Source: Escherichia phage garuso
Direction: 5' to 3' (one strand)
Length of the DNA stretch: 64,000 nucleotides
Sequence record: MN850566.1
The notes under the pieces are model-generated. The model was not told the DNA's origin. It saw only the letters and a list, made by a program, of their open reading frames with translations, and did not search any database. Positions 61,167 through 61,730 of this stretch are shown in pieces; the stretch's first letter is position 1; the number at the start of each line of letters is the position of its first letter. The translations under genes and the position numbers were made by a program.

Positions 61167-61661
61167 GTGATACTTATGATTTGTGCTAACAAAGATTGCG
61201 GAAATGAAGCCGTTAAAGGTGGAAAATTTTGCTCACGCTCTTGTTCTGCAAAAGTGAACAACAAGAAACACCCAAAGAGAAGTCAGGAAGGCTCTTGCCA
61301 TTCATGCGGAAAGGTAACGCCAAAAGCGAGAAAATACTGTGACGAATGTATTGCAGGTGGAGTCATGAAAAAACATAAGACCCATCATGAAAAAAGCAAA
61401 GCCAAATCACTGCACGTTAAAAAGTCTCGTGATAGACTGAAGAAGGCTTTAGTTGATTACAAGGGTGGTTGTTGTTCAATTTGTGGTTACAATAGGTGCA
61501 TAAAGGCTCTAGAGTTTCACCACTTAGACCCTAACACAAAAGACTTCACAGTAGGTCAAAAACACTACTCACTGGCTACAATGCAGTCTGAAGTTGATAA
61601 GTGTGTCTTGCTTTGTGCAAATTGCCACAGAGAAGTACATGAAGGGGTAACAATGCTGTGA
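61167..61661 (+). CDS. HNH endonuclease inserted in tRNA cluster
   Basis: 164 aa; Cys-rich zinc fingers and HNH motif EFHHLDPNTKD...LLCANCH; stop codon overlaps first bases of downstream tRNA-Ile. Confidence 0.7.
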   Translation: MILMICANKDCGNEAVKGGKFCSRSCSAKVNNKKHPKRSQEGSCHSCGKVTPKARKYCDECIAGGVMKKHKTHHEKSKAKSLHVKKSRDRLKKALVDYKGGCCSICGYNRCIKALEFHHLDPNTKDFTVGQKHYSLATMQSEVDKCVLLCANCHREVHEGVTML

Positions 61662-61730
61662 AAGCACATATGGATGTGCATTCGGCTGATAACCGAAAGG
61701 CAGAAGGTTCGAATCCTTCTCACAGTACCA
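61655..61730 (+). tRNA. tRNA-Ile (anticodon GAT)
   Basis: Acceptor GCTGTGA/TCACAGT, D-arm GCAC...GTGC, anticodon arm TTCGG-CTGATAA-CCGAA, T-arm GAAGG-TTCGAAT-CCTTC, CCA. Confidence 0.7.

Follow-up and report, generated by a model that had tools for sequence, protein, structure and literature searches.

The window analysed here is a stretch of 64,000 nucleotides of Escherichia phage garuso (sequence record MN850566.1). Genome comparison assigns it to Felixounavirus (Ounavirinae, Felix O1-like phages): the window is ~96% identical to Felix O1, and in its tRNA region identity reaches 96-97%, both with Felix O1 and with other Felixounavirus genomes. This tRNA region matched 370 phage records, 169 of which cover at least 80% of it, and ARAGORN identified 18 tRNA genes on the plus strand, at 59843-63383. 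An HNH endonuclease gene is embedded in this array, and the initial annotation had placed it between tRNA-Met, which ends at 61158, and tRNA-Ile. ARAGORN and the Rfam tRNA model agree on this position; the latter scores tRNA-Ile at 60 bits over 61655-61727. The locus comprises the following features:

59696 to 59816, plus strand: two promoter-like sites upstream of the tRNA array, with 10 of 12 matches each
61082 to 61158, plus strand: tRNA-Met(CAT), detected by ARAGORN, 56.4 bits with the Rfam tRNA model; left neighbour of the insert
61160 to 61653, plus strand: insert of 494 nt, present or absent among relatives, defined by alignments with REP5, IME338, BPS17W1, skuden and momo
61166 to 61170, plus strand: Shine-Dalgarno-like GGTGA, read from the sequence, with a 5-nt gap to the ATG
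61176 to 61661, plus strand: HNH endonuclease coding sequence, 161 aa, orthologue of Felix O1 ORF44 (Felix01p085)
61182 to 61349, plus strand: two Cys4 zinc ribbons (C3, C8, C19, C23 and C41, C44, C55, C58)
61452 to 61658, plus strand: HNH (beta-beta-alpha-metal) nuclease domain, aa 93-161 (C100, C103, H115, H116, C147, N149, C150, H151, H155)
61655 to 61730, plus strand: tRNA-Ile(GAT), 'type A' allele, detected by ARAGORN
61746 to 61774, plus strand: sigma-70-like promoter TTGACA-17-TATAGT (hexamers 61746-61751 and 61769-61774, 11 of 12 consensus positions)

The Felix O1 reference genome already has an annotation for this gene, and the arrangement is of a known kind. In the Felix O1 RefSeq entry, the same gene is ORF44/Felix01p085 (NP_944863.2), named 'HNH endonuclease' and located at 25030-25515; it starts with ATG and overlaps by 7 nt with tRNA-Ile, annotated at 25509-25584. 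The Felix O1 genome paper named six HNH homing-endonuclease-like genes, characterised none of them and left the tRNA overlap unmentioned (PMC3185647), and a later Felixounavirus comparison repeats this mention of the HNH genes and goes no further (PMC8300805). A tblastn search detected no second copy of the gene within the window.

The open reading frame was originally listed as 61167-61661, which yields 164 aa from a GTG codon. This start was rejected: the GTG at 61167 lies inside the GGTGA motif, it is out of frame in the divergent Henu11/KEP3 allele, and the RefSeq entry of Felix O1 uses the ATG. Because GGTGA and the ATG are both kept in the divergent Henu11 and KEP3 alleles, in which the GTG is out of frame, we place the start at ATG 61176, giving a protein of 161 aa. 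At the other end, the reading frame finishes with ACA ATG CTG TGA, the TGA stop occupying 61659-61661. ARAGORN sets the start of tRNA-Ile at 61655, upstream of the stop codon, and the two genes have seven bases in common (61655-61661, GCTGTGA), which form nucleotides 1-7 of the acceptor stem. The UGA stop codon itself corresponds to nucleotides 5-7, on the 5' strand of that stem. The overlap proposed in the initial annotation is thus correct in its sequence, GCTGTGA, and incorrect in its span: 61653-61661 covers nine bases, of which the first two, AT, precede the tRNA. The normal cloverleaf of tRNA-Ile is retained in the predicted minimum-free-energy fold.

Its 2460 database homologues, a match to PHROG 2255 and a dN/dS of 0.14 between alleles show that the reading frame did not arise by chance. 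Both motifs recognised at the outset, zinc fingers and HNH, hold up, since the cysteines and the HNH residues are conserved across the alignment of 35 near-full-length homologues on which conservation was scored. In this alignment, the eight N-terminal cysteines of the zinc ribbons are invariant, as are C100, C103, H115, H116, C147, C150 and H151, and N149 and H155 are found in at least 90% of the sequences. The C-terminal part contains the catalytic His, Asn and His motif and the CxxC...CxxC zinc ligands of the McrA-like HNH subgroup. The protein matches PHROG 2255 'HNH endonuclease' with E=7.6e-37 and PHROG 3106 at 4e-23. Pfam HNH (10.8 bits, cut-off 21.4) and AI2M-like_HNH (15 against 23) both remained below threshold, and the NCBIfam scan of the protein returned no HNH profile above threshold. 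The zinc ribbon region, modelled by AF2 with pLDDT 80-92, likewise matched Pfam DZR below threshold (E=0.016). A sequence search of the PDB gave weak matches only, to the HNH regions of LtrA and McrA; matches to S20 in the same search were spurious and involved the basic linker.

The AF2 model (pLDDT 89) displays a long basic helix (residues 70-95), two strands (112-116 and 143-147) and a helix (148-155), with the beta-hairpin and helix fold of the HNH metal site. Foldseek searches with this model gave, as best PDB matches, HNH domains from Cap5, T4 endonuclease VII, the nicking enzyme Gme HNH and Cas9 (probability 0.98, with a weak E-value of 0.025), and 55 matches at E<=1e-3 among the predicted viral structures of BFVD, almost all of them named HNH endonuclease. 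Taken together, these comparisons and the predicted structure describe a protein in which two Cys4 zinc ribbons are followed by a basic helix and, at the C-terminus, by a zinc-stabilised HNH domain; the double zinc ribbon is presumably the DNA-recognition module. Two further proteins encoded in the Felix O1 tRNA array, ORF45 and ORF47, have HNH domains 45-46% identical to that of the window protein and different N-termini; both genes are absent from the window. Such modularity, with a shared catalytic domain and swapped N-termini, is typical of homing enzymes. The genes of these Felix O1 paralogues likewise behave as insertions at tRNA borders. The N-terminal extension of a 212-aa homologue (P0002) was discarded as a gene-calling artefact, produced by read-through of tRNA-Lys and tRNA-Met. 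Three loci of distant homologues were also inspected. Two lie on phage-like contigs and have tRNA genes at distances of 0.15-2 kb, on the opposite strand; the third, on a bacterial-looking contig, has none. With contexts this mixed, a strict tie to tRNA genes does not hold for the family in general.

Comparison with relatives lacking the ORF, suggested along with the initial annotation, uncovered exact empty sites. The insert comprises the Shine-Dalgarno-like site, the ATG and 159 and a third codons, and contains no stop codon. A CAAT repeat is present at each of its ends, leaving the boundaries ambiguous by at most 4 nt. On the left, the insertion site consists of the CCA end of tRNA-Met followed by one spacer base, A61159. 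On the right, the final eight bases of the coding sequence, (T)GCTGTGA, lie outside the insert and belong to the backbone and tRNA-Ile. The base preceding tRNA-Ile is A in KEP3 and in the empty site of REP5, versus T in the window, and this agreement between the two phages confirms the base as part of the backbone. tRNA-Met is near-identical in relatives with and without the HNH gene, the differences being scattered single bases. The base composition of the insert is not markedly foreign, with a GC content of 0.405 versus 0.388 for the window.

Two kinds of empty site were found. The first, in REP5, IME338, BPS17W1 and skuden, reads ...CTGAACCTCCA-A-[T or A]-GCTGTGAAAGC..., that is, CTCCAA-[T/A]-GCTGTGA, with two bases separating tRNA-Met from the same tRNA-Ile as in the window, which we call type A. 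In all nine carriers examined, this site is identical and 494-495 nt are found between CTCCAA and GCTGTGA. In the second kind, seen in momo and ~110 other records, the junction reads CTCCAA-GCTGGTA: a single base is followed by a quite different tRNA-Ile(GAT), type B, which has in common with type A only GCTG... and ...CAGTACCA. The type A tRNA-Ile occurs in ~46-55 records, and all HNH carriers examined possess it; no carrier was seen among the ~110 type B records. Since momo differs from the window in both respects, we considered whether the HNH gene and its special tRNA-Ile form one travelling cassette. This was rejected, as an identical or near-identical type A tRNA-Ile is found without the HNH gene in ~35 records. 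The remaining association is a one-way linkage, every carrier examined being of type A.

The HNH gene is full-length in 10 phage records out of ~165 related records, with one additional copy truncated at a contig end, and is absent from ~94% of related genomes; these carriers are few and phylogenetically non-independent. Junctions retrieved from IMG/VR comprised one filled site, one empty type A site and 16 empty type B sites. Two allele groups occupy the same site. The first includes the window, Felix O1, FO1a, Sl26, L27, S.Kent, MET-P1-301 and OPT-SAL01, and the second Henu11 (a Mooglevirus), KEP3 and Henu12; the groups are ~83% identical in DNA and 81% identical in protein. When KEP3 is aligned with the window, the backbone is 96-100% identical on both sides, whereas identity falls to 72-94% across the HNH gene and changes abruptly at each of the two tRNAs. 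Since this drop in identity is confined between the tRNAs, the allele has moved separately from the sequence around it. The flanks are no guide to the presence of the gene, being 97-99% identical to the window in phages that lack it and 84-99% identical in carriers.

Between the two alleles, dS is ~0.7 and dN ~0.10, giving a dN/dS of 0.14; by region, the ratio is 0.10 for the zinc ribbons, 0.27 for the linker and 0.08 for the HNH domain. These substitution ratios indicate that the gene is under purifying selection. In MET-P1-301 and OPT-SAL01, a common one-base deletion in an A6 run causes a -1 frameshift that cuts the protein after ~73 residues, which could reflect either real decay or a homopolymer sequencing error. 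The zinc and catalytic residues are all intact in seven of nine copies. Homing endonuclease genes usually follow a life history of sporadic presence, transfer, constraint and occasional decay. The population pattern at this locus, with sporadic presence, empty sites, two alleles, purifying selection and frameshifts, is that of a free-standing homing endonuclease gene.

No promoter-like site was found directly upstream of the HNH ORF. The ORF is therefore probably translated from a tRNA precursor started at 59696 or 59787, and it is likely carried, as motif matches and analogy suggest, on a polycistronic transcript of the tRNA array issued from these two upstream sites. The strong promoter reported after tRNA-Ile is present as described, TTGACA-17-TATAGT, with its position shifted from 61745 to 61746 for the first base of the -35 hexamer; because it is conserved in relatives without the HNH gene, it is part of the backbone and not of the insert. 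We also searched the initiation region (61150-61220) for a hairpin hiding the ribosome-binding site and found none beyond what shuffled sequence gives (z = -0.2 and +1.0). As no stable hairpin is predicted there, an occlusion of the ribosome-binding site such as that of SegB is not supported. The fold of tRNA-Met together with the 5' part of the ORF was uninformative.

We consider it quite probable that the locus holds a free-standing HNH homing endonuclease gene, selfish and mobile, that invaded the 2-nt spacer between tRNA-Met(CAU) and tRNA-Ile(GAU) of Felix O1-like phages. The gene would be transcribed as part of the tRNA precursor, from the promoters upstream of the array. Its translation begins at the insert's own ribosome-binding site and ATG, proceeds 7 nt into tRNA-Ile and stops at the UGA of the acceptor stem. 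When carrier and non-carrier phages infect one cell, the protein would introduce a nick or break into the HNH-less allele, at or close to the junction of tRNA-Met and tRNA-Ile that the insert interrupts in carriers, and recombinational repair templated by the carrier genome would copy the gene in. Nicking or cutting of related phage DNA and marker exclusion, which the initial annotation had put forward, would be naturally expected from the precedent of T4 SegB (PMC2330249). On the RNA side, RNase P acting at the 5' end of tRNA-Ile (G61655) would cut between the Met160 codon and the last sense codon and so remove the stop. Each transcript could then give either a mature tRNA-Ile or a full-length nuclease, and this competition would keep expression low, as proposed for T4 segB.

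How the carrier would escape its own nuclease can be envisaged in two ways. Because the empty type A sites are otherwise near-identical to the carriers, a recognition site that spans the junction and is split by the insert would be the simplest form of self-protection. Alternatively, type B may be the sensitive allele, type A having been carried along by co-conversion; this scenario would fit the one-way linkage equally well.

Other readings of the locus were weighed against that of a selfish homing gene. The first concerns the position of the stop codon, which selection may have shaped as a means of control, with GIY-YIG, HNH and other nuclease genes arriving at it independently; a linked possibility is that such nucleases shuffle or amplify tRNA alleles and thereby help phages evade tRNA-cleaving defences. 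According to this scheme, RNase P maturation would strip the stop codon, so that most transcripts would end as a tRNA and a non-stop mRNA; the non-stop product would be tmRNA-tagged and destroyed, and active nuclease would come from unprocessed precursors only. We regard this proposal as rather unlikely. In one third of all combinations of tRNA and frame in the window's array, an ORF entering a tRNA would reach a stop codon by 15 nt, and in about half of them by 25 nt. With stops this frequent in tRNAs, an ORF that loses its own stop after insertion by a tRNA pays little for it, and no special selection is needed.

The nuclease could also have been co-opted by the phage, its breaks in the tRNA array promoting recombination, exchange or segmental amplification of tRNA genes and thereby escape from tRNA-cleaving defences. 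A precedent exists in T4/T6 SegB, recently shown to bring about the amplification of a segment with tRNA-Tyr and to overcome Septu; homologues of segB are over-represented in the vicinity of tRNA genes (PMC13096335). At the present locus, the array appears as a mosaic of alleles by the HNH sites, exemplified by the type A and type B tRNA-Ile and by the aberrant and canonical tRNA-Arg(TCT) adjoining the Felix O1 ORF45 site, and the strong purifying selection on the HNH gene points in the same direction. However, no tandem amplification was seen in any locus compared, and absence from ~94% of related genomes is unexpected for a broadly useful function; for this latter reason we do not favour co-option as the main role, and we hold it to be unlikely. 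The co-option and selfish readings are not mutually exclusive.

That the gene is a decaying relic, encoding a nuclease that cuts nothing useful and heading for loss, with the tRNA overlap as a scar of spacer trimming, would account for its rarity and for the frameshift in two of the 10 copies, and the stop frequencies of the array (one third within 15 nt, about half within 25 nt) show that such an overlap needs no selection. By contrast, the exchanged allele of KEP3 suggests that the gene was transferred recently, and a dN/dS of 0.14 accumulated at a dS of ~0.7, together with zinc and catalytic residues intact in seven of nine copies, is not what a relic would display. Because of this dN/dS in particular, a dead relic is very unlikely. 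Finally, HNH domains are multi-purpose, as illustrated by the structural neighbours Cap5, T4 endonuclease VII and the Cas9 HNH domain, yet a different role for the protein, as a terminase-associated packaging factor of the kind found in HK97-like phages or as an RNA/tRNA-directed nuclease, is highly improbable, given that no packaging genes adjoin it, that it is missing from most close relatives, which are nonetheless viable, and that the Felix O1 paralogues also behave as tRNA-border insertions.

With the selfish homing gene as the preferred reading, the locus in itself has little discovery value: the gene is annotated in Felix O1, and homing-type nucleases that abut the next tRNA are documented for T4 and T5. 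It does provide a clean set of natural variants in which homing without an intron could be tested for an HNH enzyme: the site exists filled and in two empty forms, the gene has two alleles, and some copies are frameshifted. It is also a further example for asking if nuclease expression is held down by tRNA processing. Salmonella typing and biocontrol both make use of Felix O1-like phages, and mobile nucleases can bias both the outcome of phage cocktails and recombination in such applications.

The closest known counterpart is Felix O1 ORF44, which is 97.5% identical to the window gene in nucleotides and differs at two of 161 amino acids, by point differences only, with the same site, the same ATG and the same overlap. 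A system with a comparable layout is T4 SegB, whose free-standing nuclease gene lies among the tRNA genes of the phage, is lacking in close relatives and is transcribed within the tRNA precursor (PMC2330249). SegB drives the preferential inheritance of its region, and experiments have established both that it homes and that it targets the T-psi-C motif of tRNA genes (PMC2330249). The segB gene abuts the next tRNA, and maturation of tRNA-Arg has been proposed to sever the stop codon from the last sense codon, limiting expression, a proposal in which the T5 enzymes are mentioned alongside (PMC2330249). The window gene resembles segB only in its layout and in its presumed mode of life. SegB belongs to the GIY-YIG enzymes, whereas no GIY-YIG catalytic domain was found in the window protein, whose domain is HNH. 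In addition, a hairpin is predicted to sequester the ribosome-binding site of SegB, and no such structure is predicted for the window gene.

In T5, hegC, hegD and T5.069, which encode F-Tfl enzymes, are co-directional with the tRNA array, as is the window gene, and end 14-24 nt inside tRNA-Ser, a tRNA-Gln pseudogene and tRNA-Asn, their stop codons falling 12-24 nt into the downstream gene. Site-specific endonuclease activity of F-TflI, II and IV is credited to Akulenko et al. 2004, as cited in PMC2330249. The three T5 genes were ruled out as sequence relatives by BLASTP of the window protein against T5, which gave E>1 for hegC, no match for hegD and no significant similarity for T5.069. The best T5 match was hegA (E=0.003), in an alignment covering 40 aa of the HNH motif. 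The hegC/hegD type combines HNH with a NUMOD4-like module, and the DNA-binding modules of the T5 enzymes differ from that of the window protein. Three genes from other phages come closer, as they encode members of the same HNH subfamily (domain 46-52% identical to that of the window protein), each lies in a tRNA array, and each has its stop codon inside a tRNA:

T5-like phage SA001, HNH gene: TAG at nucleotides 8-10 of tRNA-Ala
Cyanophage S-WAM2, HNH gene: TAG at nucleotides 8-10 of tRNA-Asn
Pseudomonas phage M5.1, HNH gene: TAA at nucleotides 13-15 of tRNA-Gly

The N-termini of these three proteins carry a single CxxC...CxxCE module or none, in contrast to the double zinc ribbon of the window protein, and the neighbouring tRNAs and the phage families also differ from those of the window. 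In conclusion, overlap with the downstream tRNA is common for nuclease ORFs located in phage tRNA arrays, and the HNH gene of the window is one instance of this arrangement rather than a special case.

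Felix O1 carries two further HNH genes in its tRNA array, ORF45 and ORF47. Both are absent from the window, and the position of each is marked by an empty site in the following list of features, which also covers the loci of three relatives in their own coordinates.

Features of the tRNA array in the window and in related phages
Window 60095-60171 and 61082-61158: two tRNAs with a CAT anticodon
Window 60573-61001: 430-nt gap in the tRNA array, with tRNA fragments
Window 61655-61730: type A tRNA-Ile(GAT), found in about 46-55 records
Window 61978-62057: aberrant tRNA-Arg(TCT)-like gene; 31.7 bits with the Rfam tRNA model, just over threshold
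Window ~62062: empty site for Felix O1 ORF45, 3' of the tRNA-Arg-like gene
Window 62969-62977: empty site for Felix O1 ORF47, by comparison with Felix O1
momo (locus L002) 1797-1872: type B tRNA-Ile(GAT), found in about 110 records
MET-P1-301 (locus L003) ~1779-1856: extra insert between tRNA-Lys(TTT) and tRNA-Met
Henu11 (locus L012) 1324-1406: extra insert between tRNA-Lys(TTT) and tRNA-Met

In Felix O1, ORF45 lies directly 3' of a tRNA-Arg(TCT)-like gene identical in sequence to the window copy, and ORF47 is located between tRNA-Gly and tRNA-Thr, ending 1 nt 5' of the latter. The tRNA-Arg(TCT)-like gene of the window seems to lack the D-arm and carries about 18 additional bases 3' of the anticodon arm, and ARAGORN called no tRNA at this position. 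A canonical tRNA-Arg(TCT) occupies the equivalent position in REP5, MET-P1-301 and Sl26. The window gene may represent a nuclease-resistant or degraded allele that has remained at an HNH site.

Further irregularities were found along the array. The 430-nt gap contains a partial Rfam tRNA match (22 bits, 60744-60794) and the T-arm-like sequence GAAGGTTCGATTCCTTC; in the record of REP5 the corresponding position is labelled as a 131-nt 'tRNA-Thr GGT'. These fragments may derive from former tRNA genes or from a tRNA that has been interrupted. The inserts between tRNA-Lys(TTT) and tRNA-Met measure about 74-83 nt in the relatives that carry them; the window has none, its spacer being 4 nt long (61078-61081). 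At its discriminator position, the CAT tRNA that adjoins the HNH gene has a U, which is unusual. In T5, taken for comparison, one CAU tRNA is annotated as tRNA-Ile2 (lysidine type), an identity that either CAT tRNA of the window might share.

The same slot of the array holds, across the Ounavirinae, either of two unrelated tRNA-Ile(GAT) alleles, type A and type B, which have only the first four and last eight bases in common.

Downstream, about 200 nt (61775-61978) separate a strong promoter (61746-61774) from the tRNA-Arg-like element. No gene was called in this stretch, and it yielded only faint, sub-threshold tmRNA-type Rfam matches (15-20 bits). By analogy with the tRNA region of T5, it could code for a small stable RNA.

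Nuclease ORFs that end inside a tRNA are known from four phage lineages besides that of the window: in the T5-like phage SA001, the cyanophage S-WAM2, the Pseudomonas phage M5.1 and T5, tRNA-array nuclease ORFs run on into the next tRNA and stop within its first 8-24 nt, two of them using as stop codon the tRNA's near-universal U8-A9-G10, read as TAG.
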